Notes under the pieces: generated by a model | What the model saw: only the letters and a program-made list of their open reading frames with translations | Database searches by the model: none | What the model was told of the DNA's origin: nothing | Part shown: positions 1 to 62,037 of the stretch, piece by piece | How positions within the stretch are numbered: the stretch's first letter is position 1 | Layout: each line of letters opens with the position of its first letter | Made by a program: the position numbers and the translations under genes | Virus record (IMG/VR): IMGVR_UViG_3300042507_004023 | Direction: 5' to 3' (one strand) | Source: a virus | Length of the DNA stretch: 64,000 bases

Positions 1-1422
1 AGTTTTACCAGGCACATAAATGCTCTTCGTGTCGGCAAACACGCTTGTTCCACTCATTGAAACATCAAACAAGTCTACACGCCAACGCTGACCTGTTGGG
101 CCTCCCTTGAATTCAATACCTCTAACCTTCGCTGTTCCGATAGGAGCATATGCTCCTGTTGGTGATTTATTTGAACCGAGAATAACGGTTGGGATTCTGT
201 TTAAGTTAAATCCTGTTAAGCCAAGGCTTGGGAAAGATGCGTTCGGATTTAGTTCTGCTAGAACATAAGGGCCAACAACGGAAGAGATGCGAGCATCTTC
301 AAATTCTCGTGTGGCTCTAGCCTTAGGTAGATCAATTTTAGTTACGCCTTGTGTTTCAAATTCATAACCAAAAATATACGCTTTGCCTGCACCGATTTCG
401 GCAACTAAGGTTGCTCCTGTTGCTCCATAAACTCCTTCGCTTATAGAGATTGAAAACGGATCAACAATATAGTTTCCAGATTCATCATAAGTTCTTCTCG
501 CTAGTGTGTCTCCCAACACAGCATATGATGGATATTTTTCTTTCTTGATTGTTGTCCCATCAACAATTCTTATAAATTCAACGAAATCTCGTCTTGAAAA
601 ATTATCTGTTGAAGAGGTGTTGGTTGGACTAAACTGATATTGCGTTATAGCCATTCCAATCTTATAACGATCTGCACCAGGAGCAGAATAGTTATAGAAT
701 CCAAATGATGGATCCTTTAGAGTTTCATCTTCTTCACTAGTAATAAATTCACGACTTACATTAAATCCAACCCGTGATGTTGGATTATCGTAGAGACGAA
801 CTTGAGATCCTGTAGATCCGGTTAGCGAATACGCACCAATTGTTTGCAAATCGTTTGCAACAAAGAATCCGTCAACATAACGAACTCCTGATCCGGCGTT
901 GATAAGAATCGCATTACCTAAAGCGTAACCAGTCACTCCTCCTGAAGTTACTCCAGAGATAACCATAGAAACGCTGCTTCCGTTTGGAGCAGTTCCGCCT
1001 ACCGCTAATCCGTTTGAAAATGCTGTTCCGCCTGAGGTATACTCAAAGAATATGACAGGCATATTGTCTACCGTGCTTGACGACAGACCGCTTTCTGCGT
1101 GAACGATTTTAGCGTTTGCTCTGCCTGATACTGTTAAAACTGATCCGATAGTGTCGGTTATACTCAAAGTTCCCGTTAATCCGGTAACACGAGCATATTT
1201 TACACGGTTTTCAACAACCTCTCCACCTAAAACAATTGATCCTTCTTCAAAAATATTGTCTCCAAATTTCGAGATTTGATTCTGAAGAATGGATTGAAGT
1301 TGTGTGAGTTCACGAGCCTGAATTGCATATCCCGGTCTAAACAACATTCTAAGAAACTTTTTGTTCTGATCGTAATCATCGTAATAAGGATCAACATTAA
1401 AGATGGTTGGATCGTATGTCAT
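1..1422 (-). CDS. DUF4815-type T4-like virion/baseplate structural protein (runs off the window start; partial)
   Basis: Not in the ORF track because no stop lies inside the window. Manual translation from ATG 1422: MTYDPTIFNVDPYYDDYDQNKKFLRMLFRPGYAIQARELTQLQSILQNQISKFG, later AEIGAGKAYIFGYE. AAGGAAA lies upstream; follows gp8. Confidence 0.85.
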   Translation of the reverse strand, partial: MTYDPTIFNVDPYYDDYDQNKKFLRMLFRPGYAIQARELTQLQSILQNQISKFGDNIFEEGSIVLGGEVVENRVKYARVTGLTGTLSITDTIGSVLTVSGRANAKIVHAESGLSSSTVDNMPVIFFEYTSGGTAFSNGLAVGGTAPNGSSVSMVISGVTSGGVTGYALGNAILINAGSGVRYVDGFFVANDLQTIGAYSLTGSTGSQVRLYDNPTSRVGFNVSREFITSEEDETLKDPSFGFYNYSAPGADRYKIGMAITQYQFSPTNTSSTDNFSRRDFVEFIRIVDGTTIKKEKYPSYAVLGDTLARRTYDESGNYIVDPFSISISEGVYGATGATLVAEIGAGKAYIFGYEFETQGVTKIDLPKARATREFEDARISSVVGPYVLAELNPNASFPSLGLTGFNLNRIPTVILGSNKSPTGAYAPIGTAKVRGIEFKGGPTGQRWRVDLFDVSMSGTSVFADTKSIYVPGKT

Positions 1423-1437
1423 ATGGTTTCCTTAGGC

Positions 1438-3912
1438 TCAGAACTGGAAGAGAACCTTGATTTCCTCTCTCTGTTCAATATTTCTCTTGATTGGTTGCGT
1501 ATTCTGTATGTAGATAAGTTCACCGGAGCGATACAGGAGTTCTTCTTCGTGAACCACCGAGTTTACGAGACAATTTGCGGAACTTGACGCAGAATCTTTA
1601 AATTCTATCTGTGTTCCTGTGAATGTTCCTTTGACACCTGAAAGTCTCAAGGTTCCTGTTGTTGCTCCCACAGGGGAGAAAGACCACTCAACAACAAGTC
1701 CAGTTCCTTGGGTGGTTGCTCCTGTTATTCCCCGAACAGCAAAATCACTCGGGAAAGAAATTGTGGAGAATGGTTTAGCCTCAGTTGTAACAACCGTTAA
1801 AGTTGTGGTTTGATCGTATACTGAAACAGATTCTCGTGTAATTTCTCCAATATCCACAACTTTCGCTGTGGCTGAAACTCCTGTCGGGCCACCCAAAGTT
1901 GGGCGCATGTAGTAATCAGATTCCACCAAGTATTCAAACCGAGTTGGATATTTTGTTGGATCTTCAACATATAGAGTTCCCAATGCATTATTGCCTGGAG
2001 CGGTTTCCCACTTATTGATTATTCCCGTGAAACGAGAATTTGAAATATTATTCTGTCTGTTACCGATAGAATTTACCCACAAGCCTGGACGGAAATCTGA
2101 GCCGTCCATTCGGAACTCTGCGCCCGAAGCACCTGAAGCAGGCGAAATCTTTAGACGAAGAATTTCGCGTCCTTCGGTTCCAGCAACTGTTCTGCGATTT
2201 ATATCCAAGATTGTAAAGTTTCCGCTACTTGCCGCTCCTGTTGAAGAAGAAACAATTCCTCCACAAACAAATGCTCCTGATGTTATCGACTCAACAACAA
2301 GTTCGGATGTTCCGTTGTAACCACTAACCCCATCATTCCAAGAAACTATTCTTGCCGTTGCTGCGCTTAACCCTGTAGCACCATCAGCACCAGTTTTACC
2401 TTGTATTAGTGTTGCTCCACCTATAAAAGATCCAGACAAGCCCCATTGCTCTAGTCTAAATCTGGTTTGAGGTTTCTTTAATAGTGGGTTTTTTATAATA
2501 CCAAATTGGCGGTAGTCATTATTAACAGATAGTTTTTTTCGTTCATCTTGACTAAAATCAATCACAACCATTAACGCGGCTGCGCCCAATTCTTTTATGG
2601 CATTACTTCCATGCCCGCCCGGAGGAGACAGAACAATATTTGCAACATCGTTAATGTTTCCTGTTCCTGTGAATCCTGCTGCAAAGGTTAATCCCTTTAC
2701 AGATATAAAATTTGCTCTACTATATCCAGCACCAGTGTCAACCATTTCGAACGAATCAATCAAGGTCTGATTGTAAATGTTCGTTAGATTGCAGTTATCT
2801 CTAGAAGAAGTTACACCAGGCCCAAATTTAACGGTAATATCTGCCTCTTTAAATTTGTTTAGGTATGTTTCTCGTGAATTGCCGTCGCCTTCTATTCTGA
2901 TGTTTGGAACAATCGAAAACTTGCTAGAGTTTGCAGACAAACCAACAGTTAGAGGCTCATCTAAAGTAATTGTTCCGTAGTTACCTATGGCGGTGTAATT
3001 GTAGGTTTTGATTACACGGCGTTGCCCTTCACCAGCACCAGAATCTACCGAGAAAACTAGATCGTTATAAAAGCCATTTAGACCAATCAGATAAGGACTG
3101 TAAATTCTTATTGATCCTGTATAACCATTTGAATAGTTTTGCGAAATTGAGTTAGCATTATTCGGAGTTACACAGTTTACGGCAGTTAGATACGGACGGT
3201 ATTCTGCTCGCAGTTCTGTGAAAGCAATTTCTCCATCAATTGCGCTTTGTTGAACATTCCATTGTAGTGATCGTTCTTCATCAACAAGACGAAGATAATC
3301 CACATATTCAACAGGAATATATCCCTGCACAACAACTCTTTGAAATGCTGCGGTTGAACTTGAAGTTTCATCATATACAGTCTTTGTGATAAACTTTCTT
3401 TTGCTCTCTGGAATCATATACATGAATTTCCAGCGATATCCATCAGAAAGTTTACGAATTTCGGGATCGGTGTGTGTTGGTGCAACCGTGGATACAGAGT
3501 TATAATAGTTGTCTATGCACTTATAGACTCGGGTTTCATCAACAACCACATAAAATCTAACCGGATTTATAGGATCAAATAGATCGGAGTCGTAACGATA
3601 CGGCTCGTAAACAGATCCCAATTTCCAATCAAATCTTGGTATCACTAAAGAGGCGTTATCTTGGGTTAGCCGCTTTACAGCAACAACATTTTCCCAAAAT
3701 TCAGTTTCTGTATCGTCCGTATCGTTTGACACCGGAACGGAACTAGCATATGAGCCTGATATTCCATCTGAAATTTCTTCAGTTTTCCAAGGGTTTACTC
3801 TACCTATACTCAAGAAATAATTGTTTTCCGATGAAATCGAAAGATCTGAAAGCACCTTTTCTGAAAGGTGTCTTCTAAAATTTTGGCGTATTGGGGAGCA
3901 GGATGATGACAT
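1438..3912 (-). CDS. gp8: Baseplate wedge subunit gp8-like (824 aa)
   Basis: Motifs YFLSIGRVNPW, FYVVVDETRVYKCIDN, DGYRWKFMY, PPGGHGSNAIKELGA, NDYRQFGIIKNP, ELIYIQNTQPIKR; follows gp7. Confidence 0.85.
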   Translation of the reverse strand: MSSSCSPIRQNFRRHLSEKVLSDLSISSENNYFLSIGRVNPWKTEEISDGISGSYASSVPVSNDTDDTETEFWENVVAVKRLTQDNASLVIPRFDWKLGSVYEPYRYDSDLFDPINPVRFYVVVDETRVYKCIDNYYNSVSTVAPTHTDPEIRKLSDGYRWKFMYMIPESKRKFITKTVYDETSSSTAAFQRVVVQGYIPVEYVDYLRLVDEERSLQWNVQQSAIDGEIAFTELRAEYRPYLTAVNCVTPNNANSISQNYSNGYTGSIRIYSPYLIGLNGFYNDLVFSVDSGAGEGQRRVIKTYNYTAIGNYGTITLDEPLTVGLSANSSKFSIVPNIRIEGDGNSRETYLNKFKEADITVKFGPGVTSSRDNCNLTNIYNQTLIDSFEMVDTGAGYSRANFISVKGLTFAAGFTGTGNINDVANIVLSPPGGHGSNAIKELGAAALMVVIDFSQDERKKLSVNNDYRQFGIIKNPLLKKPQTRFRLEQWGLSGSFIGGATLIQGKTGADGATGLSAATARIVSWNDGVSGYNGTSELVVESITSGAFVCGGIVSSSTGAASSGNFTILDINRRTVAGTEGREILRLKISPASGASGAEFRMDGSDFRPGLWVNSIGNRQNNISNSRFTGIINKWETAPGNNALGTLYVEDPTKYPTRFEYLVESDYYMRPTLGGPTGVSATAKVVDIGEITRESVSVYDQTTTLTVVTTEAKPFSTISFPSDFAVRGITGATTQGTGLVVEWSFSPVGATTGTLRLSGVKGTFTGTQIEFKDSASSSANCLVNSVVHEEELLYRSGELIYIQNTQPIKRNIEQREEIKVLFQF

Positions 3913-3929: not shown

Positions 3930-6900
3930 TTAAGTTAATTGATAGTTGAATTCCTTGACAGTTTCGCTGCCTGTAATAATGGCATTTGAAACATTTCGGA
4001 AGTATAGTTTGAGTCGATATACGCAATTTGTATTCGGATACTGATTTCCTCTCCAACTAAATGGACTTCCTACAGTTCCTCTACCCAAAGTTATTGCACC
4101 AGGCTCGCTGTTCGGATTGTCGGGATTTACGAACGGATATAGGATGTTTATGCTGTTGGCAGAGGTTGGGAAAGGCCCCACCGAAGCCATCTGATATTCC
4201 TTGCCTGTTTCATCCACCACAGACAAATCTGCCCAAAGACTTATTGCCGAGTAATACGAGAGGTATAGCAAGGTGGAAAGTCCTGCCAACTCGCCCGAAG
4301 AAATCAGAACCCCATCAAGTTGAATGTTCATGGATCGGCTACCAGGTTCACTATCAACCACATATTGAGTATCTGTGCTCCATTCCGGAATGTCTACCGA
4401 CTTTCCGTTTACAGTAACTACCTTGACTTGCGGGACAGGAGGAGTCAAAACTTCCTGATCTTTACAATTAAATTCGGGACCAACTGGCATTTCTAGGAAT
4501 GAACGAAGCGTTATCTTTCTGAATTCCGAATAGTCCACTCTAGAACCTAAAGTTGTAAGTGCAAGTATTGGGCCGTTATCTCCCGTTTCTCCCGAGGTTG
4601 ATCCGGTTTGACCTAATTCACAATTACAAGTTTCAACACAATATGTGTGATTTACTCGATACTCGGCATAACAATCTATGGGTAGACATTGACCGCAATT
4701 ATCGTATTCTTGTTGTGTTGGGCAATCGGCACACACATCGCACCCCTCAGAAACACATCCATTAGCAACACAATCCGAGCAACTTATAGATGGAGTGCAA
4801 CCGCAATCTCTACAGAAACTGTTGTTTATGCTGTATTGGTTGTCGCAATCTGATGGAGTGCATTGACTACACAGCGTGTAACTCTGTTCACAACCACAAG
4901 ACACACAGAACTCGTAATTAATTGAGGATGGATAATCGCAATCACCTTGCAAGCATTGGTTGCAGTTTGTGTATTTGCCAGGGCCATCGTAAATACACTC
5001 GTCACATTCCGTTCGGCAACGAATGCCATTACAATCATTTTTTACACACTCATCGCATAGAACTGTTGTTGGCACACAGCCACAGGTGTTTCTACAGAAT
5101 TTAGTATTAACTGTTATGCTATCACAGTCCAATTGAGTGCATTCTTCACAACTTGTGTAAATGGTTCCACAACCACAATCAACACAGAAATCATAATTTA
5201 AAGTTCCTACTGTGCAATCTGCTACTGTGCATTGTGAACACTTGGTATACTTTGTCTTGCAGCCCTCGCAGTTATAACAGCCCGAACAACCTGCACAATC
5301 GTAACTTCCTGTGATGCTGAAACAATCAAAAATTGGTGAGCAACAAGAGCAACCTGTGCAACCAGGATCTACTACCACAGCAGAACAACCCGTGCAACTG
5401 TGACAGCCTGAGCAGCCTGCACAATCATACATTCCGCTCACAATGTTGTAGCAGGGCAATCCTTCCCAAGTCGAGCAAGCCGCACATCCTGTTGGACCAG
5501 CAGATGCTCCTGTTATGGCACATCCTGTGCAACCACCAAATCCTGAACAACCCAAGCAGTCGTAAACACCCAAGAAAGTGTTCCAACATGCAAATCCATT
5601 AGCAGTAGTTCCGCAGCATAGAGCACCAGAACAAGTTGGGCCAGTTACAGGACATCCTGTGCATTGCCAGCAGCCAGAACAACCTTCACAATCATATCCT
5701 GTCGGAATATCCATTGTAAAACACGGATTAACTTGAGAACAACGATCACATCCTGTGGCTGGTGCTGTTACACCACAGCCTGTAAAGCCATAGCATCCTG
5801 AGCATCCTTCGCAATCTAGCAAACCTGTGATACGGTTATATCCTCCCGTCAAACAACATTCGCAGCCTGTGCATCCGCCTGTTACAGGACATCCTGTGCA
5901 CGAGAAGCACCCCGAGCATCCTTCGCAGTCATATAGACCTGTTACAATGTTGTAGCAACCGCCCGTCACGCTTGTTGAGCAGCAACCACAACCTGTGCAA
6001 CTAGTTGCTCCTGTGATAGAGCATCCTAGACAGCCCCAACAACCCGAGCAGCCTTGGCAATCGTAGAATCCATCAATTGTGAAGCATGGGTTTTCTTGAC
6101 TGCATAGAGCGCATCCTGTTAGACTTCCTGTTATACCGCAGCCCGTGCAACCGTTGAAGCCCGAGCATCCCACACAATCGTATATGCCTGTTACAATGTT
6201 GTAGCACAGAGTTCCACTGCCTGTGGTTCCGCAGCATGCCGTGCCACCTGAACCCGTGCAACTAGTTGCTCCTGCGGATACACCAGTGATACCACACCCT
6301 GTGCATCCAAAGCAACCCGAGCAGCCTTCACAATCGTAAAGATTTGTAGCCTTATTGAAGCAGCCACCCGTGCAGCACTCACAACCAATACAAGGAGTTG
6401 TTGTTGTGCAGCCCAAGCATCCAAAGCAGCCTGAGCAGCCTTCACAATCGTAAATTCCACTTAGAGTCCAGCAAGGAGCGTCCGAACGGCAAAGATTGCA
6501 TCCTGTTGCTCCTGTTGGGCCTTGAGGACATCCTGTGCATCCGTGGCAACCAGAACATCCTGCACAATCGTAAATACCGTCAACAGTATGGCAAAGGTTT
6601 ACAGAACTGCACAGAGCACATCCTGTTGCAGGAGCAGTTATACCGCATCCTGTGCATCCGAAGCATCCAGAGCATCCTTCGCAATCAAGCAGTCCTGTCA
6701 TTATGTTTAGACACGGGATACCAGGATGGCATGAATCGCAAGGATCTTGTGGAATAGATGGACATCCTGTGCAACCGCCAAGTCCTGAACATCCTTCACA
6801 ATCATAAACTCCCAAGAAAGTATTCCAACATGCGTTTCCGTTTGCTGTCGTTCCGCAACAACTTGGACCCGAGCAAGTTGGGCCTGTTGCAGGACATCCT

Positions 6901-9900
6901 GTGCAGCCTGGACAACCTGAACAGCCCAAACAGTCGTATAGTCCACCTAGTGTGAAGCAACCAAACTGACAACAATCGCATCCAGTGCAAGCCGTTGGGC
7001 CAGGATCTCCACCAAAAATATAAGCCCTGTCGATTTCATCGAATACAACAGGAACATAACCCATGTCTATTAGTTCTTTAATTACTGTTCCGCGAGCAAC
7101 ATCTCTGTCATTTGCTCGTGTTGGATCTCCTCCAAATCCTCGTAGAGCAGGATCGTTTGAGGAATACCAGTTGCAACCAACCCAAGTTTCGTGATCTGGT
7201 GTTAGATAGTTTGCCAAGCCAAATGACTTAGTTACATTTCGATTACCATTTGAGGCGTTAAACAAATCAAGATATGTTGCATCTTTTCTGTGCATGTAAT
7301 CAGAATTTCTACTCTCTGTAACATACTTTATTTGTCCCTCATATAGCGACAAATAAGAATTTCTAATTGACTCTGCACCTATGTAAGAAACCTCATTTGG
7401 GGCATTCGATGGATGCCAAGCATCCAATCCTATCATACCCTTTGAAACGCCTCTAGAATTTATAGTGATATTTGCGACTCTATCTAACTGATCGAGTATT
7501 AGTTGGTCATCGTATCCAGTCGATCCAAACGGATAAAGAGTTCCACCAAATTCGGTTTGATATTTCAATGAATTGCCAAACCAAAACCCGACTTGTTTAT
7601 CATCATCCAACGCATCTATCATAGATTTGAACAAAGAAACTCCATCATCCATATTATTTGTAATGGAGAATGTTGCACCTAATGGAGTAGTCCAAATTCT
7701 ATCAGGTTCGTCCCAATGCGAAACTGCTCTAACTGGATAATTTCCACTTGCTGCTGCTCCACTTGGAGTCCAAATCATAACACGATCCCAACCCTTTTTC
7801 TCTATCTGATCCTTAACATAATTTACAGGGCCAGACATACCAACCACATTTGGGTATCCTCCAGCCTGAGCAGATTTGGTTTGAATTGTATCCCAACCGT
7901 AAGGATTGTAATTAGAAGCGGTGGGACTAGAAAGGTTTACTAGGTGTTCATATCCAAAATGAACTCCTTTAACTGGTCTATAATCTGGAATATACGAATG
8001 CGGATACTTGGAGTCCAAGAAATCTTTATACACCGATAAAGTTTCAAACGCGGCAGCATCTTGTAAATTCACATCTTGTTCTATTAACGATTTTCCGCCA
8101 ATTAGATTCTGAGAAATCGGAATAGTGTTGAATTTAACAACCACTTTATAGGTTCTAGTTTCGCCTGCCGGTATTTTTGCAGAATCATACAATTGAGATT
8201 CGTTTTGTGTTGCAAATTGGAAACTATATCTATCAACATATGCCTTATAATTTTGATTTGCAGCAACACTCATCGCAACAGCCGGATTGTCTTGTGGCGG
8301 GAAAACTACAAGACTTATATCGTGACCGTAAACTTCTGGTTGATATCCAACAACAGACATACTTACAGCAAAATTGTTTTGCTCGCAACAAGCACCTTCA
8401 AACTTAGTTTTTGCGAGATGAATAGGAGAATACAAAATATCAGGATATCTTGCACTTTGAACAGAACCATTTCTGGTTATAGTTCTATAGGTTCCTATTG
8501 GGGATCCTGTTGCTCCATACAGTTTTGTATCGTAATATTCAATAGAATCACCCAAATTCAATGAAGGAGTGTCCAACCAATCTATGATTTTTTCTTCGCT
8601 GCAAGTGTTGGTATATGTGTAATTTACTTCCATTGTTCCGTCATTATCGTTTGTAATAACGGATATGTTTGGTTTGATTACCGAATTTGAACAATTTGAT
8701 GTTCCTGGTTTTGGTGGAGTCCACCCGTTGATAATGATTCTGTCACCAGGCCCATATGCATACCAAGAATCACCTATCACATCGTATTCAAAAGCAAAAT
8801 CTGTAGTTTTAGGATTGTTATACTTTTGATTCCAATAGTTTAGTGCGGCTTCGATTTGTGTATAATTTATTTTATCGGTAAGGGCGAAAACATTATCAAC
8901 TTCTGATTTACTGATTCTTGGGAAATCACCACTAACGCTAACATTACTTACAAGTTCGAATGTTGCACCTATAGCACCAAAACTAATAATATCTCCAGGG
9001 AATCCCAGGTTCACCCATCTTGGTCTTTGATTTGCGTAACTAGGATCTTTTTGTAGATCTAAAGCCTTTAGTTGTGCATCACCTGTAACTGGATTTGATG
9101 CTCCTAGACAGGTCGAATAAGGCGCATTTCCACTAGTAAATCCGTGAGTTGCACCATCAACTCCCCAATATCCCGTATCAGTTCTTGAGCCGAATGGGAC
9201 AGCGGGAGTCCAAAGGGCTACATCGTTACCAGCCTCTTGGGTAAATTGTGGTTGCCCTACAAAGAAGAAAGGCTCAACACCAATTTCAACAGTGTTTGCA
9301 TCAATCGCTTGAACTCGCTTAACATATCCTATACGATCCGCAGTGTTCCAACCTTTGTCTTGATATGATCGACCGTCAGGGTAAGAAAATACGGTGGCGG
9401 ATCCTGTTAACGAATTAAATAACGGATTTGAAATAATGTCTCCGGTTACTCCCACACCGTCACGAGATCTTATTGGAGTAGACGATAACGGATTTACTGT
9501 TCTGTAATTAAACGCAAAAGTTGTGCCTGGAGCCATGCTTAAATTTACAGAGTTTGCTCCGTTAGCAGAGAATTTCTTTATTCTGAATGTGTATTCTTTT
9601 ATACTGCCCCATTCAGGCAAATCTCTAGTTTTCTCAAAGAAAGATGGATATTTGGTTTTTAGATAAGCATACTTTTCTGGTTTGTCAAACACAAATTGAG
9701 CACCAGTTTGTCCTGTCATGCCATCAAGGAAGGCTTCATACGATAGTAAATTCATACGAGCCTGAGTTTTGGGAGTTTTGCCAGTCAATCTTGCAGGAGC
9801 GGATGCTGTTGGCCAAACCGGAGCCAAAGATCCTCCCCACCAAGGATTTCCTCCCTGTTTTCCACTTGTAATCAACCATGATACACGCGGTTTACCATTA

Positions 9901-12900
9901 AGCCCAATAGGAACTCCTGGTCCTGTTGGTGCTCCTGGTCTTAACGCTTCTCCACCAGCAAAATCCCAATATGGCTCAAATCCATAAGAAACGGTTAATG
10001 GATTTAGTTTCCAATCAATAACTGATCCATCGGCTCCAGTAATTTCAATGGTTCTTGGATTTGGAGAACTAATGGCGCATCCCCACTTTTTGGTGTAGGT
10101 ATCGTCTCCAGACCACAGATAGAACCCGTGAACTGAGCCTTTTGGATTACCCGACAAAGAACCTTCAATATACAGATTAACAAATTCTGATGGACTAAAG
10201 AAAGATCCGTCTTGTATTGATGGGGCTACTGCTCCGTATCCGCCACTTCCAGTTCCAACAGTATACGCTTTATTTGAAATGAACGGGATAATTAGCACAT
10301 TATCGTATCCCTTTTCTGCTGCAATTTCTTGCCGCCATTTAACCATTTCGGTTATGGTCAAATTTTGCAGGGCTTTTTCTGCTGCTATATTTTCTGTGGC
10401 AACATAAAAACTAGGCATCCACACATTAACATTTCTTGCATAATTCGTCCATTGTTCTTTCCACAGTTTTAAAGCGTGGTCACGATACTTGGTTCCGAAT
10501 CTAACATCCAAAATACCTAATCCGCTTGCTTTTGATGATTGGGGATCGTTAGTATCCAAAGTATCTCTGCCGTCCCAACGGCAATCGGGGCATGTTGGTG
10601 AAGGCACATAACTCTTATAATCAACGGACTTGCCATCAATTATTCTTGTTAAGGTTTCAAACTTTGAACTTCTAGCGTCTCCACTAAATCCTGGATAATC
10701 GTGATATTTCAAAATGTTTCTTGGAACTGCGTATGGCTGCCCGTAGTTTGCAAACAGGGCGTTTGGAAATTTTTGTTGCAATCCGTCAAAAGTTAGTCCA
10801 TCCGCACCAGTTCCACCAACAAATATCGGAATCATATACTTGTTCATTATAAAATTGCCGACCGAATTTGGATCATCTGGATTTGCTCGTCCTACACTGC
10901 TAGAAAAAATTGGATCCCAGGTTTCATTATTCATTGCGATCAGATTGTCATACTCGAAAGTGTAACGATTATCCCCTAAACGCAAAGTTCCTGCGCCAGA
11001 AATTCCATTCCAGTCTGGCTTAATATCTCCAAGCAAAGACGAGACAAATTTATCCATTGCTGCTTTAGAGGTATTTGTAAGCCCGTGTGTTCCTGCAACT
11101 ATACCTTTAAAAGCACCAACTTTAGGATAATGGCTGCTTGCTTCTGAATCCCAATTTGTGAATCGGTTGTATTGTAGTGTGATGTTATCCGCGTAAGATG
11201 TTTTATCTTCAGAAGTGTCTGAATTATTCAAGTTCTTTGCCAATGGGCTTAAAGAACCAATTGCCTTTACGGTTTGTGTTTCATCAATTCCAATCACTTC
11301 TCCGTTTTCATTTCTCAAGTAATAATCCAAAGTAATATCTGTTCCTGTAGACAGATTTTTTTGAGGGGTTAGATTTGAAACACTCTTGCTATTATCAGTC
11401 TTTAGTTTTTCTAGATCCTTATATCCTTGAAGAGTGAAAACATTATCATAATAAATTTTTGGCAAAAATGCGGATTGTCCTACAAGTTTATTTTGAGGAG
11501 TCAAAAACTCTTGAACAGATTGTGGTTCATAGTAGGTTTGAGTATACGGTTTAACTGGATTGTAATTCAGGGTTACATATCGTTCTCCTGAAGTGAATCC
11601 TGTCGCCCAATCTGTTCGATTTGCGGTGCTACCTTCTGTCCACTCTGCCCAATAGCCAGTATAACCGCTATTATTAGAAGAAATTCCAAAAGGAAACTCT
11701 CTGCCTGCTCCCAAATCATTCAAGAATTCGTTCTTTAGATCGTAAGGAATTCTAGCCGTAACTGAACCACGAATCTTGCGATTCGGGTGCTGATATACGA
11801 TCCAGAAAGGATCTGCGTTTTGAAAGTTTGCTGTTCTCAGAGGAACTAGAGGATTTTGGAATGCTCGGTTAAATGTTACGGGATTTCCTATAGACTTTAA
11901 ATATTCCTTTGAGGAAATTCCATCAAGCCCCGCAAGAGCAACATCACCGAAATCTATTATCCCGTTTTCATCAAGATCATTTCTTATAATCTGATTGTGA
12001 ACTGTTGGATCGTAGCCAGCCAAAAGTCCTGTGTTTGGATCCGTAAACCAGTTTGAAAGATCGTCGTAAGTTTTGAATGTATACGGTGCGTAGTGACCAA
12101 TAATCGGCACTTCGTATTCCACAAGAGATGTGCTGTTCTGCAAATCTGCAACAGCGCAACGCTTAATTTGAACTTTACCAAAGAACGCAAGACCTGCTGG
12201 ATTTAAAAGTCTCTTTAAAACATCACGATAACGATCAACAGTAACTTCACTTAAAATAACATATGAAAAGTTTTGATAGTAATGATTGTCTTGAATAACT
12301 TTATTGGTGCTTAATCTGCCGTCGTTGTTGGCGTAATAACCTTGGTATTCCGCCATTCCATTAACAGTAACAGAACCAACAAATCCGGTTCCTGCTTCAG
12401 ATTCAATTGTTATTGCGGGAGCAACCTTGTAATTAACACCATAATTATCAATCAAAATTTTTCTGATTTTACCCAAAGCGTCAACTTCAGCAACACGAGC
12501 AGAGGCTTTAACACCAGTATCTCCTTCAGCAGAGGCAAAAATAACACGATCTCCTGCTTTATACCCGCTTCCGCCGTTTGTTATTGTGATTTTTCCAATA
12601 ACAGAGAAAACTCGGTTTTCTTTACGCAAAATACCAGTTTTGTCTGTAAATTCTATGCCATCATAGCCTGCCGCAAATTGACCATTTACTCCACCCAAGA
12701 AAAGTTCAGCAATATCATTAGTTCCAACTCGATATGTGCTAACTTCAATGACTCGTCCACTTGCAGCAATATCTCCGTTCGCATCTCGTTGAACTACTGT
12801 TGCGCCAATAGAATCAAAAATAGCATTTCCTATATTGTTACTCGTCTTTATAGAACGACGGACAACCCACTTTCCGTCTGAAAGTTTCATAATATCATTC

Positions 12901-35763: not shown

Positions 35764-35770
35764 CTAAATA
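35763..35770 (+). promoter_or_regulatory. Late promoter ACTAAATA for the glycosyltransferase
   Basis: Late motif 35 nt before ATG 35806. Confidence 0.65.
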
Positions 35771-35805
35771 AACGGCTAACGCCACTTACATAAATGGAGA
35801 ATAAA

Positions 35806-43361: not shown

Positions 43362-44195
43362 ATGCTAGAACACTTTTACCATCAAACGATTCGTAAAGTT
43401 GTAGTAGCATTCGGTGCGTTATTTAACGATATCTACATCTCTAGACTTGACGATAATAACGCTGAAGTGGAACGAATTAAAGTTCCTATTGGTTACGGCC
43501 CACAGCAAAAGTTTATTCGTCGTCTTGCTAGAATTGGGACAGATTTTGATGCAAATAAGGTTCGCATTGAAAACTATTTGCCTCGTTTATCCTTTGAAAT
43601 TGCAAACATCTCTTACGATCCTAATCGTAAATTAAATCCATTAAATCGAACTGTTTTGTATAAAAATGCTTCAACTGTAAAAAGCAGATACGAAAAGGTT
43701 CCGTATAACATGGATATAAATCTTGGAATTATGACCAAGAATACTGAAGATGCTCTACAGATCATGGAACAGATTCTGCCGTATTTCCAACCAGAATACA
43801 CGGTTTCTATTCGCATGAATGATATAGATCAAAATGTAAACATTCCAATTGTGTTTAAGAGTTGCAACATAGGCGAAGGCGATGATGGTTCTTATGGTGG
43901 ATACGATCTTCGTAAACTGACTTACGCATCCATGATCTTTACGGCTAAACTATACTTGTATGGCCCAATCAGCGATGTGGGAGTCATCACAGATACCGGT
44001 GGCGTAAGTCTTGGTGCAGGGCCATCATCAGTTTCAGGATCTTTGAGTGGAATAAACATTATGATTGGCATACCAAATGGCCCAACTGCTGCAAACATTC
44101 GAGTGTATCCAAACACAGGAGTTACTGCGGGTTCGTATGTTCCTGAAGGCCCAACAGCACAACACCAAATTACAGAATTCCCCGGCAACGGGTGA
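43362..44195 (+). CDS. gp15: Tail sheath stabiliser / terminator gp15
   Basis: FYHQTIRKVVVAFGALFNDI; KVPIGYGP.QKF; LPRLSFE; QIMEQILPYFQP; KLYLYGP. Confidence 0.95.
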   Translation: MLEHFYHQTIRKVVVAFGALFNDIYISRLDDNNAEVERIKVPIGYGPQQKFIRRLARIGTDFDANKVRIENYLPRLSFEIANISYDPNRKLNPLNRTVLYKNASTVKSRYEKVPYNMDINLGIMTKNTEDALQIMEQILPYFQPEYTVSIRMNDIDQNVNIPIVFKSCNIGEGDDGSYGGYDLRKLTYASMIFTAKLYLYGPISDVGVITDTGGVSLGAGPSSVSGSLSGINIMIGIPNGPTAANIRVYPNTGVTAGSYVPEGPTAQHQITEFPGNG

Positions 44196-51341: not shown

Positions 51342-51604
51342 TGACTGATAGATCAACACATCTGAATGAATTGGTTTCACGCAGAATAATTCAATGCGTG
51401 ACAGAATGTGTTTCCACAGGAAAAGGAAAAACCCTTGAACTGATGGATGGTTCTATTGTTCGTTTAACTCCAATGCAAGCAAAAAAGTTTATTGAAATAC
51501 ACGATAAACTTAGCGAGTCTAGTCAGGCTTCTTTTAGATTGATGCTTGTAGAAACAAAAAAAACATTTGATGGCGTTAACGCCTTCTGTAAGGAGAAGAA
51601 CTAA
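51341..51604 (+). CDS. Putative prohead core-associated small protein
   Basis: Start revised to ATG 51341 (TAATG coupling); LELMDGSIVRL...LSESSQASF..ML. Confidence 0.55.
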   Translation: MTDRSTHLNELVSRRIIQCVTECVSTGKGKTLELMDGSIVRLTPMQAKKFIEIHDKLSESSQASFRLMLVETKKTFDGVNAFCKEKN

Positions 51605-52020
51605 TGGCTGCTAGATTAGACTATCTTGTAAAGAGCAAAAACCGTTGTGTGGTGGCGTATTCCTCGGATGGAGGAGGCGGAAATGTCAATTTTGATATTG
51701 GGCCTTCAGCCTTTTGTTCGAACATTACGGAATTTACCGGAGAATTTGCCACCAAAGGATTGACCTTTACTTCTGCTTGCTTGTCTAGAGTTATAGGTTC
51801 TGCTGGTGGTAATGCAGGAACTATTGAAATTGCGTTTGCTGGATCCGCTCCATATCAAGCATTTCAAGTTCCTTTTGCTAGTGTTGTTGATGCCAACTTC
51901 GAAAGATTCACTATACAAAATTTATCAACAGGATCAACAGGAATGGCAACCATCACAAATCGTTTAGGTAGCGGTGCTACCGCTTCAATTATCATGGAAT
52001 TTGTGACTCGTCATGTCTAA
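51604..52020 (+). CDS. Hypothetical virion protein (138 aa)
   Basis: Coupled ORF in the head cluster; beta-rich, Gly/Thr-rich. Confidence 0.65.
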   Translation: MAARLDYLVKSKNRCVVAYSSDGGGGNVNFDIGPSAFCSNITEFTGEFATKGLTFTSACLSRVIGSAGGNAGTIEIAFAGSAPYQAFQVPFASVVDANFERFTIQNLSTGSTGMATITNRLGSGATASIIMEFVTRHV

Positions 52021-53897: not shown

Positions 53898-55310
53898 ATG
53901 GAACTCACTATCTCAGAAGCCCTACAGAGCAAGTGGAAGCCAGTGCTTGAGCACCCAGAACTTCCCGACATCTCTGATCCATACCGCAAGGCGGTAACAA
54001 CGATTCTCTTGGAGAATCAGCAGCAATATCTACGCGAAGATGGCCCATCAAACATCGGCTCGAACCTTGACGGTGGCGTAGCCGGTGGCAACTCAAATGT
54101 TGCTCGTTGGGATCCAATCCTCATTTCGCTCGTTCGTCGTGCAATGCCAAATCTCATTGCTTACGATGTATGCGGCGTTCAACCAATGAGTGGCCCAACC
54201 GGTCTTATCTTTGCTCTACGCAGCCGTTACAACAACCAGTTCGGTGACGAAGCCCTATTCCAAGAAGCCAACAGCCGCTTCTCAGGTAAGGCTGCTACCG
54301 GTCTAACTGGCGCAGGTCTCGGTCAAACCGCAAACTTCGGTGGCGTAACCGCAACTGATACTGATCCGTTCTATAACGGTGTCAACGCTGGTTTCACCGC
54401 AGGTAACTTCGGTCTAGATCCAAACGGCGACCCATTCTTGGGCACAGCAATGTCAACCAACACAGGCGAAGCCCTTGGTTATCCAAACGGTTCACAAGCC
54501 TCAGGCTCACAGTTTGCACAAATGGCATTCTCAATCGAGAAGACCACTGTGACTGCTCAGACCCGTGCGTTGAAGGCAGAATACACAATGGAATTGGCAC
54601 AAGATCTTAAGGCTATCCACGGTCTTGACGCTGAAACCGAACTCGCCAACATCTTGTCGAGTGAAATTCTTGCCGAAATCAACCGCGAAGTCGTTCGTCG
54701 CATCTATGTGTCAGCCAAGTTGGGTGCTCGCTCAGGTCTAACTCAGACCACAGGCGTGTTCGACTTGAATGTTGACTCGAACGGTCGTTGGTCAGTCGAG
54801 AAGTTCAAGGGTCTGCTCTTCCAAATGGAGCGCGAGTGCAATCAAATTGCCAAGGAAACCCGTCGTGGTAAGGGTAACTTCGTCCTCTGCTCGGCAGATG
54901 TGGCAAGTGCTCTAAGCATGGCAGGCGTTCTTGACTACGCTCCAGCCCTCTCAACCAACCTCAATGTTGACGATACAGGCAACACCTTCGCTGGTGTTCT
55001 CAACGGTCGTCTCCGCGTCTACATCGACCCATACGCTTCACAGACAGCAACTCACGAGTTCTTCTGCGTTGGCTATAAGGGTTCGAGTCCATACGATGCT
55101 GGTCTCTTCTACTGCCCATATGTTCCTCTACAAATGGTTCGTGCAGTTGGCGAGAACTCGTTCCAGCCAAAGATCGGATTCAAGACTCGTTACGGTCTAA
55201 TCCACAATCCATTCGTATTGAACTCAAGCGGTCAGGTAACAAGCGATCTCGATGCTACAGTTCGTCGCAACATGTATTATCGTATCGTCAAGGTCACAAA
55301 CCTCTTCTGA
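53898..55310 (+). CDS. gp23: Major capsid protein gp23
   Basis: DPILISLVRRAMPNLIAYDVCGVQPMSGPTGLIFALR; ALKAEYTMELAQDLKAIHGLDAETELANILS.EI.AEINRE; GRWSVEKFKG; FQPKIGFKTRYG. Confidence 0.99.
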   Translation: MELTISEALQSKWKPVLEHPELPDISDPYRKAVTTILLENQQQYLREDGPSNIGSNLDGGVAGGNSNVARWDPILISLVRRAMPNLIAYDVCGVQPMSGPTGLIFALRSRYNNQFGDEALFQEANSRFSGKAATGLTGAGLGQTANFGGVTATDTDPFYNGVNAGFTAGNFGLDPNGDPFLGTAMSTNTGEALGYPNGSQASGSQFAQMAFSIEKTTVTAQTRALKAEYTMELAQDLKAIHGLDAETELANILSSEILAEINREVVRRIYVSAKLGARSGLTQTTGVFDLNVDSNGRWSVEKFKGLLFQMERECNQIAKETRRGKGNFVLCSADVASALSMAGVLDYAPALSTNLNVDDTGNTFAGVLNGRLRVYIDPYASQTATHEFFCVGYKGSSPYDAGLFYCPYVPLQMVRAVGENSFQPKIGFKTRYGLIHNPFVLNSSGQVTSDLDATVRRNMYYRIVKVTNLF

Positions 55311-55465: not shown

Positions 55466-57094
55466 ATGGCAGTCTATTATTGGAAGGGATCAACAGGCGG
55501 AACTGCAAGCAATTATGCTTGGAATGTTCCTCAAAACTGGGTTAAAGTCGTAAAACCAAATCCATATTCATCGTTTTCTTACTTTGTTGGAGCAACCAAT
55601 TCTGTTCCATCAGGTGGCGATGATGTGTATATTGGTGGATTTATTACGGGCCCAACCTGTGTGTCGCCGCTAGTTTACGGTGGATACTCAGGTTCTGGTA
55701 ACACGGGTTCTTGGATTTCAAATATCGGAGGAACCGGCGCAACAACTGCACAAGGTCAACTCAATTCGCTTGTTGTTGGTTGGCAAACTGGTGCTACAGG
55801 CAAATATCCATTTACAACTATTGGTGGTGGTAAGACCATAGTTTGGGATATGACTGGCTCAAATTTCAGCATAGGTGTGGTTGGCACAATGACTCCTGGA
55901 CTAACACCAGACAGTCTTGTGGGAACTTACTATGATACCTTGACTGTTTTGGCTAAAAACACTTACGAAACTTCTTCAAGTGTTGGTGATACCATTAACA
56001 GTGTGGACGCAAACCCATACACAATCAAATTAAATTACGCTCTAGGTTCTACTGCATTTTCATCAAATTTGTTTACAAACACAGTAATCAAAGGAGCAAG
56101 ATCTTTAATTGGTCTTCCAATTCAGGCTTGTGGTTGGGAAGACGGAGGATCATCTAGCAAATCCAAGATGATTCTTTCTGGTTATTTGAATAAAGTTCAA
56201 GACTTGTCTGCTCCATGCCAAACCTATTGGATGTCTGGACAAACTAATTTTGGTTCTCCAATGGTTTACTTCCAAGGTTGCACATTCGCAGAGTATCAAG
56301 GCAATAATCATTGCACTCTAGTGCTTGATGAAAATTCAACTGCGGCACTGATTTCAATTAATTCTTGGTTTAATTATCCAAGTAATGTTTTGGGTAAGTA
56401 TCCATATCACTACATTAAAGGAGAAATTAACGCATCTAAAGCGTTAGCAGTATTTGGTTTAACTGGTGGTGTAACTGGCGCAGGAAAAGGAACTTTGTCC
56501 GTTAATGCAGATTGGTATTCAAATATTGGATGGCAATATGAAGGTGTGTGGGAAAACAGTCCTTTAAATAACAGCACTAGACAAGAGTGCGGGTTTATTA
56601 TCCTTAGTGGTGACGATTGGAGTGGTGTTACAGGCAACACTCGTATAGGTGAAATATTAGTTAGAGGTGGCAATCCAGTTGATGGTGACGGCGGAACTCC
56701 TTGGAATTTTGCATCACAATCAAACAAGCCTATCTTGATGGTTAAGCGAGGAACTGTTATAGGTTCTGCAAATATGGAATATGGCGAAATGTTTGGGCAT
56801 GATGCTCCAAATTCTCCAGCGTCTGTTGGTCAGTTGGTTATGTCTAGAGACTCTACACTTTGGACAAATTCAATGGCTTGGCAGTTTGGCGTTACCGCAG
56901 GAGCAACAGGAGCCACCGCAATCGTTGGTGGTATATTCGGTGATACCACTACTTGGATTCGTATGAGTGACGGCGTTCAATTGTTCAACAAGAATCTTGC
57001 TAGAACATTCAAGAACACTACTTATAGTGCAGTCAACTTTAGCATCAACGATGTCACTCTTGAACCTGATACCATGAGAAAAGAAGCACTATAA
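55466..57094 (+). CDS. Orphan Gly/Thr-rich beta-structured probable virion protein (paralog A)
   Basis: N-terminal YYWKGSTGG...YAWNVPQNW; own late promoter and terminator; directly after gp23. Confidence 0.75.
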   Translation: MAVYYWKGSTGGTASNYAWNVPQNWVKVVKPNPYSSFSYFVGATNSVPSGGDDVYIGGFITGPTCVSPLVYGGYSGSGNTGSWISNIGGTGATTAQGQLNSLVVGWQTGATGKYPFTTIGGGKTIVWDMTGSNFSIGVVGTMTPGLTPDSLVGTYYDTLTVLAKNTYETSSSVGDTINSVDANPYTIKLNYALGSTAFSSNLFTNTVIKGARSLIGLPIQACGWEDGGSSSKSKMILSGYLNKVQDLSAPCQTYWMSGQTNFGSPMVYFQGCTFAEYQGNNHCTLVLDENSTAALISINSWFNYPSNVLGKYPYHYIKGEINASKALAVFGLTGGVTGAGKGTLSVNADWYSNIGWQYEGVWENSPLNNSTRQECGFIILSGDDWSGVTGNTRIGEILVRGGNPVDGDGGTPWNFASQSNKPILMVKRGTVIGSANMEYGEMFGHDAPNSPASVGQLVMSRDSTLWTNSMAWQFGVTAGATGATAIVGGIFGDTTTWIRMSDGVQLFNKNLARTFKNTTYSAVNFSINDVTLEPDTMRKEAL

Positions 57095-58722: not shown

Positions 58723-58730
58723 TAGGGGAT

Positions 58731-60248: not shown

Positions 60249-60294
60249 GAGGTAGTTTTAAAACCACTCATTCTCTTTAAAGGGGTAATAACAC

Positions 60295-62037
60295 ATGTCA
60301 TTAGAATACCACTGGATTGGTGCTACCGGCAATTCAATCAACAAATACGACTGGAACAGTTTAAACAACTGGCTCGTATACGATTCCACAAAAGTAAACA
60401 CAATCGTTGGGCCTTGGAGCCGTGCAACTCGCGTTCCTGAGGCTCTTGATACGGTTAAGATTGGTGAAAAATTCCACTGCTTTAGCCCGCTTCTGTTCGG
60501 TGGTTACACCGGTGGTTTAACCCACAGCAGCGGTTCTTGGGGTGTTGCAGGTGGCGTAACAAGCGCAACCGCAGGTGTTACTGACGGTGGTGTAATGTTT
60601 GTGTATGTTACCGACAAACCGGCTTCAGATTACGGCCCATCAGTTTCTGGTGCTCTCATCTACGGTGTTGCAGGTCTTAACTCAAGATCTCCTTCGGGAA
60701 TTTGGGCATCTTTCGACGGCGGTGCTCAAGATCTTGTTGAAGCATTAGAGTTGATTAACCCACACATTTCTGATCTGTCGGCAACTGGATCAGCATCTTA
60801 CGATTATAACGATTCGTTGTATCCGTTCCCATACCTTGGCGGTGGGTTGACTGGTGAAATCTTGGATTGGGTTTACACTCAACACAAGACCTCTTACGAG
60901 GCTCACGCTGCTGTAGGAAATTCCGCCTATGCCGCAGCAAACGCATGGGTTGGTGGCGGTGCAACCGGCGCACTTGAACCAAGAACACAGGAACTAAGAA
61001 TTCGTGCAAAGCGAGTTGATATGAATCCTGGTGTAGGCAACACATCTCTACAGAACACAAGAATTGTTAACATTAAAGTCAATCCAGACCGTGAAAAGAA
61101 TGGTGGAACAATTCAAACTGTGGTAAATGTGAACCAATACGAAAACCCATTCCACTACTACACCATCAAGAATGTGGTGGCAAGAACTGTTAATGTTATG
61201 GGTGATGCTAGCGTTGAACTGCTTGGTGTAACCGCAGCACAAGTCAACTCTGATATGCACAGCACACTAAAGACGGATCGTAATTGCAGTCTAGGTGGTC
61301 TTCGTGTTCAAAGTGGACAAAACACGGCTCGCTACAATGTGTGGCCTCTATACTTTGCAGGTCAAATCACTGCTGGTGCTGTTAGCGCAGTATGGGGTAA
61401 CGCAGCACAAACCATTCCTGTAGGCACTTACGCAAACGCAATCGTAGTTGACCCTGCACCAGCAAATTTCGCCGGAACTGGTTTAACTTCAGTAGTTCAA
61501 ACCAGCAATCTAAGCCCATACATCGGTATTGGAGAGTATCAAGGCGGAACATCACACTTCGCCACAATTCCATCACTAATCTTGAACTCAGCAAGCGAAG
61601 GTGGAGGCCCCAAGCACAGCCTACAGTTTATAGGTTCCGCAAAGATTGCTGAAGTTGAACTAAACGGTGGCGAGTTTGTTCCTTCACTGTTGTTGACTAA
61701 TGGCGATCCTTGCGAAGTTTATGTTGGTAGTCTAAACATCTCCAACAATGCAATCGTAAGAATGAATGTCAATCCGGCGTTCGATTCGCTGTTCATGGGT
61801 GGTATCACAGGAACCAATCCAAGCAACTTCCGTTTAATCGGCGGAATCAATGCGTTGGATGACACTTGTGTGATTTATCCAGACACAGGAATTCGTCTAG
61901 TAAACACCAAGATTCTAGAAGGTGGTCAGGACGCTTCGGGCAAGAAGAACAATACATTCTTCACCGTAAGCAGAAACGATATCACAGCCCTACAAGGCTC
62001 GTTGGGTATCGAACAACCGAAGATTGCTCTCGACTGA
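60295..62037 (+). CDS. Orphan Gly/Thr-rich probable virion protein (paralog B of 55466-57094)
   Basis: YHWIGATGNS..KYDWNSLNNW...VP..LDTVKIG..CFSPLLFGGYTG aligns by eye with paralog A. Confidence 0.75.
   Translation: MSLEYHWIGATGNSINKYDWNSLNNWLVYDSTKVNTIVGPWSRATRVPEALDTVKIGEKFHCFSPLLFGGYTGGLTHSSGSWGVAGGVTSATAGVTDGGVMFVYVTDKPASDYGPSVSGALIYGVAGLNSRSPSGIWASFDGGAQDLVEALELINPHISDLSATGSASYDYNDSLYPFPYLGGGLTGEILDWVYTQHKTSYEAHAAVGNSAYAAANAWVGGGATGALEPRTQELRIRAKRVDMNPGVGNTSLQNTRIVNIKVNPDREKNGGTIQTVVNVNQYENPFHYYTIKNVVARTVNVMGDASVELLGVTAAQVNSDMHSTLKTDRNCSLGGLRVQSGQNTARYNVWPLYFAGQITAGAVSAVWGNAAQTIPVGTYANAIVVDPAPANFAGTGLTSVVQTSNLSPYIGIGEYQGGTSHFATIPSLILNSASEGGGPKHSLQFIGSAKIAEVELNGGEFVPSLLLTNGDPCEVYVGSLNISNNAIVRMNVNPAFDSLFMGGITGTNPSNFRLIGGINALDDTCVIYPDTGIRLVNTKILEGGQDASGKKNNTFFTVSRNDITALQGSLGIEQPKIALD

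Follow-up and report, generated by a model that had tools for sequence, protein, structure and literature searches.

A recurrent G-x-T-[G/A] tetrapeptide on outer virion proteins of a T4-like phage clade: candidate acceptor of a phage-encoded GT-A and TPR glycosyltransferase

Why do structural proteins of unrelated folds, encoded in a single stretch of viral DNA, share the same short peptide? The question is raised by IMG/VR virus record IMGVR_UViG_3300042507_004023, of which a stretch of 64,000 nucleotides (the window, meaning the whole stretch analyzed) encodes the tetrapeptide G-x-T-[G/A] repeatedly in virion proteins, together with a 390-residue glycosyltransferase (GT) composed of a GT-A domain of family GT2 and tetratricopeptide repeats (TPRs). 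A first-pass annotation, made from the DNA letters and their translations, had read the tetrapeptide as a modification signal, with the Gly/Thr-rich composition of β-structured virion proteins as the competing explanation. The results presented here indicate that the motif is real, specific, and limited to this clade and to its outer proteins, and that the enzyme has the fold of a glycosyltransferase, is strictly conserved, and is located among the structural genes. The proposal that G-[A/L/V/P..]-T-[G/A] is the acceptor, throughout the virion, of the phage's own soluble, late-expressed GT-A and TPR O-glycosyltransferase stands in our judgment at even chances of being correct.

Copies of G-x-T-[G/A] were counted in the 55 open reading frames (ORFs) of the window and compared with composition-preserving shuffles of whole proteins, which give an expectation of 21.3 copies, whereas 102 are observed. 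Ten motif-bearing proteins account for 97 of these, compared with 14.7 expected from whole-protein shuffles, 19.8 from shuffles within 20-residue blocks, and 22.4 from shuffles within 10-residue blocks (z ∼17); over all whole and local shuffles z is ∼14–18. The permuted orders [GA]T.G, GT.[GA], T.G[GA], and G.[GA]T remain at 0.8–1.2 times expectation. The flanking residues work jointly, in that G.T[^GA] and [^G].T[GA] occur at 0.99 and 1.0 times expectation, respectively. Residue preferences, computed with a repeat array in gp7 excluded, are 4.2-fold for Thr and 1.2-fold for Ser at the center, 3.7-fold for Gly and 2.2-fold for Ala at +1, and 4.3-fold for Gly at −2, while Ala, Val, Leu, and Pro are favored and charged residues avoided at the x position. 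The same preferences are repeated in two related genomes described below, G001 and G002, where central Thr is enriched 3.8-fold and Ser 1.5-fold. A cherry-picked choice of motif is ruled out by an unbiased scan that took in every a.bc, abc, and ab.c pattern: among 6,824 patterns of the a.bc type G.TG ranks first (56 observed, 11.0 expected, z 13.6) and G.TA second, and the top contiguous tripeptides are GAT, TGA, ATG, and GVT. At its G, T, and G/A positions the motif uses codons as the same genes do in general, which rules out an origin as a nucleotide word and indicates that the signal acts at the level of protein.

That the pattern might be an artefact of Gly/Thr/Ala-rich composition, of internal repeats, or of post hoc motif choice is suggested by the composition of the bearing proteins (9–13% Gly and 6–10% Thr) and by the 32 copies that are repeat- or collagen-borne, 22 of the 33 in gp7 being in a Cys-rich repeat array and 10 more in collagen-like G-X-Y runs (8 in the fiber protein and 2 in gp8). 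A stringent mask was therefore applied that removes the gp7 array and every run of at least four G-X-Y triplets. After masking, 65 copies remain, compared with 11.0 (standard deviation 3.3) expected from whole-protein shuffles or 14.0 (standard deviation 3.7) from local shuffles, an enrichment of ∼5-fold. Repeat inflation as the sole cause is thus ruled out, and because this excess stays after masking, the dispersed copies carry a signal on their own. The competing explanation offered in the first-pass annotation must accordingly be rejected, since the shuffles, the flat permuted controls, and the orthologues of phages lacking a GT2 gene all contradict it, comparably Gly/Thr-rich orthologues elsewhere not being enriched; an artefact of composition, repeats, or motif choice is hardly credible.

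The excess follows the anatomy of the particle. Outer virion proteins hold 97 copies compared with 14.6 expected, inner and other virion proteins (tube, portal, hub, tape-measure, gp5, gp6, gp25, gp53, gp48, and neck) hold 4 compared with 4.95, and non-virion proteins hold 1 compared with 1.84; the outer class was set after the counts had been seen, although it is anatomically coherent, and exposure of all the bearing proteins is judged from T4 anatomy. No copy is present in UvsW, gp32, TerS, TerL, portal, protease, or scaffold. These zeros had been reported in the first-pass annotation for the same proteins (terminase being named there as one), and they were confirmed by counting, as were the gene names given there by PHROGs and Pfam searches and the carriers it listed, to which we now turn.

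On the minus strand, the DUF4815 baseplate or fiber protein (1..1422; PF16075, phrog_358), represented by its N-terminal 474 residues because the gene leaves the window, has 8 copies compared with 0.86 expected, GLTG, GVTG, GSTG, and GATG included, and the gp8-like baseplate wedge protein of 824 residues (1438..3912; PF09215, phrog_438) has 6 compared with 0.83, including GKTGADGATG, GPTG, and GITG. The giant gp7-like baseplate wedge protein of 3120 residues (3930..13292, minus strand; PF23786, phrog_17744) has 33 copies, 11 of them outside the Cys-rich array, which spans residues 2085–2665 (5298..7040, minus strand) and has the unit ...DCxGCSGCxGCTGC.... The array consists of ∼14 such units, whose G-C-x register yields many G.TG and G.SG matches; metal binding or a disulfide-knotted fiber may be raised as possible functions.

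The remaining carriers are encoded on the plus strand. A fiber protein of 1368 residues (37076..41182; Collar domain and tail-fiber PHROGs), directly downstream of the glycosyltransferase gene, has 17 copies compared with 3.5 expected, GVTG, GATG, and GLTGATG among them. Its collagen-like runs of at least four G-X-Y triplets cover residues 435–464 (38378..38467), which are rich in G-x-T, 624–641 (38945..38998), 660–671, and 1280–1291; the longest is thus 30 residues, and neither the fiber nor any other bearing protein matches Pfam Collagen at E ≤ 0.001. All three copies in gp15 (GPTA twice and GVTA) are located in its variable C-terminal tail, residues 212–277 (43995..44192), past the Pfam match T4-gp15_tss that ends at residue 211, and alignment indicates that this tail is missing or different in GT-negative phages. 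The tail sheath protein gp18 (46459..48201; phrog_23) has 5 copies, 4 of them in a variable outer-domain region that maps to T4 residues ∼87–344. When sites from the window and two relatives are combined, 15 of 16 align to T4 gp18 residues ∼86–345, which reportedly (Aksyuk et al. 2009) form the protruding domains I and II. A head-module protein of 138 residues without a family match (51604..52020) has 2 copies, and its homologue in G002 has 4. Of the five copies in gp23, four are in a hypervariable Gly-rich loop, residues 135–168 (54300..54401), as seen in an alignment of eight gp23 sequences, in which it corresponds to T4 gp23 residues ∼173–214.

The densest carrier is orphan A, a protein of 542 residues (55466..57094, plus strand) with 12 copies compared with 1.4 expected and with no match in Pfam, PHROGs, or NCBIfam. 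Its paralogue, orphan B, of 580 residues (60295..62037, plus strand), has 6 copies compared with 1.07; the two are 24% identical and have in common an N-terminal W-x-G...N-x-x-x-N-W signature. The two genes occupy the place of gp24 and hoc in T4. The orphan family has 21 representatives among 1.8 billion proteins, with 120 copies pooled compared with 23.5 expected. The fuller form of the family signature, approximately Y-Y-W-x-G-x-T-G...Y-x-W-N-x-x-x-N-W, recalls autotransporter-associated β-strand repeats. In an AlphaFold2 (AF2) model of orphan A with a predicted local distance difference test score (pLDDT) of 62 and a predicted template modeling score (pTM) of 0.73, the protein is mostly β, all 12 copies are in coil between strands, and 8 of the 12 touch segments with pLDDT below 50; no significant match of the fold was found in the PDB, the weak ones being to β-helix structures.

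Ten complete T4-like genomes served as controls: T4, DLP_6, HTVC008M, P-HM1, phiM7, RHph_I1_18, BUDD, ACP17, BUCT-ZZ01, and OspM_OC. None of them has a Pfam GT2 match above threshold, and no homologue of the window enzyme was found in any cultured T4-like phage. The ratio of observed to expected copies in these genomes is 1.05–1.54 genome-wide and 0–2.0 in the orthologues of the outer proteins (91 compared with 61.6, pooled), and no protein in any of the ten is enriched (p < 1e-10) to the degree of the G-x-T-rich neighbors described below for other lineages. These ten genomes rule out a general trait of T4-like virion proteins. The corresponding ratios are 4.76 and 6.6 for the window, 2.3 and ∼4.3 (40 compared with 9.3) for G001 (177 kb), and 2.9 and ∼3.9 (47 compared with 12.0) for G002 (168 kb), both of which are near-complete and GT-bearing, their pooled outer figures being sums of per-protein counts. 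The gp18 proteins of G001 and G002 are 52–57% identical to that of the window, and their orphans hold 29 copies in 511 residues and 36 in 950. In 80 IMG/VR loci around the enzyme gene, enrichment is 3.7-fold in the fiber, 5.6-fold in DUF4815, 6.6-fold in gp8, 7.3-fold in gp7, 9.6-fold in gp15, 4.8-fold in gp14, and 4.0-fold in gp18, compared with 0.84-fold in the enzyme itself and 1.2-fold in TerL. An apparent 24-fold enrichment of TerS in the relatives was discarded as a single conserved site counted in ∼26 orthologues; this G-x-T-[GA] site is present in most relatives near TerS residues 122–137 (loci L003–L081, for example L003:10896-11402), and the window TerS is without it. The first-pass annotation had named equal enrichment in relatives lacking the glycosyltransferase as evidence against its proposal, and they are not equally enriched: the split is complete, with three GT-bearing genomes at 3.9–6.6 and ten GT2-negative genomes at 0–2.0, although the GT-bearing genomes are effectively one clade.

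Within that clade the sites move. Among seven trios of orthologues from the window, G001, and G002, only 30 of 244 ordered site comparisons (12%) find the motif in the partner and 39% are opposite gaps, while overall aligned identity is 52%. Motif density is kept while positions change, and this fits a constraint on modification sites or on surface density rather than a fold-determining element. It also bears on the alternative that no modification is involved. The motif would then be a structural element peculiar to the lineage, for example a turn or a strand cap in β-solenoid and fiber proteins, or the result of slippage of 9-nt G-x-T units in variable loops, and the glycosyltransferase would serve another target, for example DNA or a component of the host envelope. 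Such an element would agree with the coil location of every copy between strands of the orphan A model, with the mild baseline of 1.0–2.0-fold in GT-negative phages, with one plainly structural copy in gp23 discussed below, and with further glycan genes in the clade that could have other targets. A fold element should, however, keep its position; orthologues with the same folds are not enriched in the ten control genomes; codon use is without any sign of DNA repeat expansion; the nearest characterized relatives of the enzyme all act on proteins or peptides rather than on lipids or DNA; and the enzyme gene is inside the structural module behind a late-type upstream element. We consider a purely structural origin distinctly improbable.

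The enzyme gene (35794..36966, plus strand) was identified by Pfam, fold, and conservation. Its GT2 domain matches PF00535 at 37.8 bits (cutoff 23.3) and PF13704 at 30.5 bits (cutoff 27.5), and the best solved relative by sequence is GmaR (1.1e-8, GT domain), followed by SunS. The D-S-D sequence at residues 102–104 aligns with D-A-D of GmaR, and D102 and D104, as well as the block D46-T-G-S-T-D51, are invariant in 17 homologues. The TPR match is below threshold by sequence (TPR_12 at 17 bits, cutoff 30.1; designed CTPR proteins at 0.016–0.3), and an AF2 model built with the 17 homologues has an α/β domain at residues 15–178 followed by ten paired helices at residues 191–389, with pLDDT of 80–95. 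Foldseek matches cover both domains in SunS (7msn, E 1e-11, TM-score 0.51–0.54 over 400 columns) and ThuS (7msk, 1e-9), and TPR proteins, including CTPR, the TPR domain of O-GlcNAc transferase (OGT; GlcNAc, N-acetylglucosamine), and GmaR, are matched at 1e-6 to 1e-5. The GT2-TPR gene that had been proposed is thus real, and by its sequence and modeled fold its product is protein-glycosyltransferase-like, transfer to Thr being a prediction. That this enzyme acts on G-x-T-[G/A] is suggested by analogy with SgtA of Clostridioides difficile, which in vitro attaches β-O-GlcNAc to Thr within the GPT repeats of BclA3, a collagen-like glycoprotein of the exosporium, and can also use Ser (PMC7157674).

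The enzyme behaves as a core gene of the structural module of its clade. IMG/VR contains 108 relatives of 67–91% identity; the gene is present in all 22 gp14-anchored clade loci with at least 7 kb upstream, and in each of the 34 clade loci in which it was found it precedes gp14 by 1.7–5.4 kb. In the window it ends at 36966 and the fiber gene begins at 37076. The heptamer CTAAATA (35764..35770, plus strand) is located 24 nt before its start and also precedes the fiber, gp13, gp18, gp19, gp22, and both orphan genes. Sixteen copies of this heptamer occur in the window compared with 9.4 expected, most of them preceding late genes by 10–60 nt and on their coding strand, and the sites include 35113, 35764, 37037, 41634, 46405, 48198, 52699, 55405, 57154, and 60242. 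The canonical T4 late promoter, TATAAATA, is not enriched in the window, with 3 copies compared with 2.65 expected. By its placement, CTAAATA is probably the core of the late promoter of this clade, a predicted function, and because it is common to the glycosyltransferase and virion genes, we infer that they are expressed together late in infection.

Homologues of the enzyme outside the clade suggest a further alternative, in which glycosylation by the enzyme is restricted to the collagen-like G-x-T runs of the neighboring fiber, as in an SgtA-BclA3-type pair, and the dispersed copies, not being substrates, are a separate, clade-specific loop or mini-collagen block. Phage homologues in Tunturi_5 and DSL-LC01 have 26–37% identity by tblastn and 28–40% in a whole-record search. 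In Tunturi_5, a Tunturiibacter jumbo phage, the homologue is located 4 kb from an annotated tail fiber with 66 copies, all of them in G-X-Y runs, and the remainder of the genome has 75 copies compared with 85.6 expected. In DSL-LC01, an Actinomycetia phage, five collagen-like proteins have 14–125 copies each, the first of these proteins being encoded 3 kb from the homologue, and more than 90% of the copies are in G-X-Y runs. In addition, Gly is enriched at −6 and −3 around the motif in the window, TG.T is the top ab.c pattern, and many of the window copies form short triplet tandems. These observations agree with an enzyme dedicated to the fiber. The 65 copies outside runs of at least four triplets nevertheless remain ∼5-fold enriched, they have the residue preferences of the collagen-like ones, and they are present only in outer proteins of the enzyme-bearing clade; moreover, there is no known structural reason for unrelated folds to gain the same tetrapeptide in non-homologous loops. 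Restriction of the enzyme to the fiber therefore appears unlikely, although it deserves to be taken seriously, and we infer that the dispersed copies are used besides the collagen-like ones. The narrower claim that the fiber's G-x-T runs are glycosylated, whatever else may be, is more likely than the virion-wide version.

Some features of these other loci are of separate note. The DSL-LC01 glycosyltransferase gene (locus L154, 98280-105236) is flanked by tryptophan-halogenase-like and methyltransferase genes near the collagen-like fiber genes, a neighborhood that hints at further chemical tailoring of the fibers. The homologue in the 735-kb phage LR756501.1 (W07 168620-169780) has one in-frame TAA, and nearby ORFs are short, pointing to a broken gene or to stop-codon recoding. 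In Methylocystaceae the homologous GT-A and TPR unit forms the N-terminal portion of a larger, multidomain protein with ∼1200 residues (Methylocystis; L190 7995-11579, L191 505-4230).

A last alternative is that the motif signals something else: it could be phosphorylated, serve another transferase of the glycan cluster or an enzyme of the host, or bind a decoration protein. The clade does encode several more glycosyltransferases and sugar-nucleotide enzymes, and no observation links the dispersed sites to a specific enzyme. In G002, a sugar cluster beside a RecA-like (UvsX) gene (L147:15668-19624 and L148:493-3698) includes two genes of the GDP-mannose-dehydratase/epimerase family, a DegT aminotransferase gene, and GT47-like and GT2 genes; virion glycans, DNA, and the host envelope are all candidate targets of this cluster, whose presence in a GT-bearing relative also counts in favor of the main proposal. 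Only the GT-A and TPR enzyme, however, has a relative by architecture that is documented with a G-x-T-G acceptor, and it co-localizes with G-x-T-rich proteins in four independent lineages. A different meaning of the motif is for these reasons very improbable.

Glycosylation by the window enzyme would proceed as follows. During infection, the enzyme would transfer sugar from a nucleotide-sugar donor to Thr of the tetrapeptide. The neighboring fiber would be modified first, in its collagen-like G-x-T runs, and the enzyme would act likewise on the copies, isolated or paired, that the clade has gathered within flexible loops and tails of outward-facing virion proteins. These are the gp23 loop of the capsid, the outer domains of the sheath, the tail of gp15, and gp7, gp8, DUF4815, and the β-rich orphan pair. 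The outcome would be a sugar-coated particle, and the biological role of the coat may be shielding, stability, or adhesion. A broader version holds that the whole T4-like clade coats capsid, sheath, neck, baseplate periphery, fibers, and orphan decoration proteins with phage-made glycans at G-x-T-[G/A] by means of an SgtA-like enzyme, the glycans possibly being extended from a phage nucleotide-sugar pathway, and that sites are gained and lost fast in surface loops. This version is possible but doubtful.

Several results weigh against glycosylation at these sites, or against its virion-wide extent. The case for it rests wholly on sequence and is to that extent unproven, and SgtA is likened to the window enzyme by architecture. 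Ser is hardly enriched at the center of the motif although SgtA takes it in vitro. The collagen- and repeat-borne share of the copies has been given above, and one gp23 copy, GPTG at residue 99, is clearly a structural element, the block CGVQPM-GPTG-LIFA in which it occurs being universal in T4-like phages, GT-negative ones included (T4 itself has SPTG there). Only a single clade is known to have the virion-wide pattern, and enzyme and motif could be independent traits of that clade; no natural loss of the enzyme was found among the 22 loci that were anchored on gp14 and had 7 kb or more upstream. Accessibility of the sites is deduced from the coil state and low pLDDT in one model of moderate quality, and a cytoplasmic enzyme must reach the sites either before or after folding.

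The association in other lineages is likewise imperfect. Of six bacterial loci with homologues of 32–43% identity, one, in a Saccharimonadales metagenome-assembled genome (MAG), has a motif-rich neighbor, a 260-residue ORF with 19 copies 4.4 kb downstream of the homologue; loci of Streptomyces, Methylocystis, and a Parachlamydiaceae MAG have no G-x-T-rich neighbor. In neither of the huge phages LR756501 and LR745206 does a motif-rich ORF occur less than 40 kb from the homologue; the former has a (GPT)n gene 220 kb away, and the latter has none. A G-x-T-rich protein is thus found within 5 kb of the enzyme in three of eight other homologue-bearing lineages, or four of nine when this clade is counted, and because some homologue loci have no such neighbor, the association between the enzyme and G-x-T-rich proteins is strong but not obligatory. 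G-x-T collagen-like proteins also occur in phages without such an enzyme. Of the modification signal first proposed, the enrichment, the lineage specificity, the accompanying enzyme, and the SgtA/BclA3 precedent all speak in favor, and the single clade, the collagen and repeat share, the universal gp23 GPTG, the near-absence of Ser enrichment, and the homologues without G-x-T-rich neighbors speak for caution.

To our knowledge, glycosylation of tailed-phage particles has been demonstrated in few cases, mainly in mycobacteriophages, and we know of no acceptor motif that predicts it from sequence. The candidate acceptor described here is short, statistically unambiguous, and tied to a conserved enzyme with a biochemical precedent, and since acceptor and enzyme are so specific, the hypothesis can be tested directly with one enzyme and one short peptide or tail. 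If it is true, many uncultured aquatic T4-like phages would become recognizable as glycosylated, more than 100 IMG/VR contigs having the enzyme; under the broader version, the clade would offer a phage counterpart of the shifting glycan shields of eukaryotic viruses that is readable from sequence. There would also be consequences for the stability and adsorption of the particles, for grazing or immune recognition, and for the reading of structural proteins in metagenomes.

The remaining gene content places these proteins in context. By its matches to PHROGs and Pfam, the window covers structural and late genes of a T4-like myovirus that branches deeply. A minus-strand block contains DUF4815, gp8, the 3120-residue gp7, gp6, gp25, PAAR, gp5, gp53, and gp48 and is followed by hub, tape-measure, and gp32 genes; a plus-strand block contains the GT2 gene, the 1368-residue fiber, gp13, gp14, gp15, terminase, gp18, gp19, gp20, gp21, gp22, and gp23, as well as the two orphans (542 and 580 residues), UvsY, and UvsW. 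At the DNA level, the match to cultured phages is limited to ∼230 nt of gp23, 73–78% identical to Prochlorococcus phages, and the nearest cultured sheath proteins, those of Stenotrophomonas DLP_6, Ochrobactrum OC, Pelagibacter HTVC008M, and the Sinorhizobium phiM7 group, are 42–50% identical. The PAAR-domain protein (phrog_281; 16275-16577, minus strand) adjoins the gp5-like hub/lysozyme gene, a position that fits a spike tip. The tail-tube family phrog_45 is matched by four genes, gp19 and three paralogues (24755-25762, 48239-48871, 57166-57711, and 57704-58225), two of the paralogues being in tandem after orphan A, and G-x-T-[G/A] is present in none of the four.

Comparison with known systems delimits what may be new here. 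Mycobacteriophage glycosyltransferases are reported by Freeman et al. 2023 (Cell Host Microbe; cited in PMC12619734) to decorate virion subunits, with glycans on terminal extensions. These phages are siphoviruses of Actinobacteria with glycans reported on the C-termini of capsid and tail-tube subunits, and their terminal extensions are comparable to the C-terminal tail of gp15 in the window; the window, unlike these mycobacteriophages, has a tube without the motif and has sites in internal loops of capsid, sheath, baseplate, and fiber proteins. Tunturi_5 and DSL-LC01 resemble the window in having a homologous glycosyltransferase 3–4 kb from fiber proteins packed with G-x-T-G, and differ from it in that the motif is confined to long collagen-like arrays with no virion-wide spread. 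The nearest solved relatives are GmaR, the Listeria flagellin O-GlcNAc transferase with GT2 and TPR domains, and the glycocin S-glycosyltransferases SunS and ThuS. All share with the window enzyme the cytoplasmic type of GT-A domain joined to helical repeats, of which the known members glycosylate protein or peptide, although identity to the window enzyme is low (13–16% in structural alignments), and the acceptors are Ser/Thr of flagellin for GmaR and Cys of glycocin for SunS and ThuS, no G-x-T-G site being known for any of them.

A close parallel is that with SgtA, a protein of 358 residues with a GT-A domain at residues 1–260 and four TPRs, whose gene is immediately upstream of bclA3 (PMC7157674). 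SgtA and the window enzyme are both soluble, have ∼360–390 residues with an N-terminal GT-A/GT2 domain and C-terminal TPRs, and are encoded directly upstream of a surface fiber gene with G-x-T triplets; each Thr of the BclA3 GPT repeats is in the sequence G-P-T-G, which is itself an instance of G-x-T-G. Unlike the SgtA-BclA3 pair, the window system is phage-encoded and is located inside a T4-like structural module. Its putative acceptors, unlike the long GPT arrays of BclA3, are mostly single or paired and are distributed over many unrelated virion proteins, and its motif tolerates Ala at +1. If the proposal is correct, chemistry of the SgtA type would extend from collagen arrays to dispersed sites on unrelated folds.

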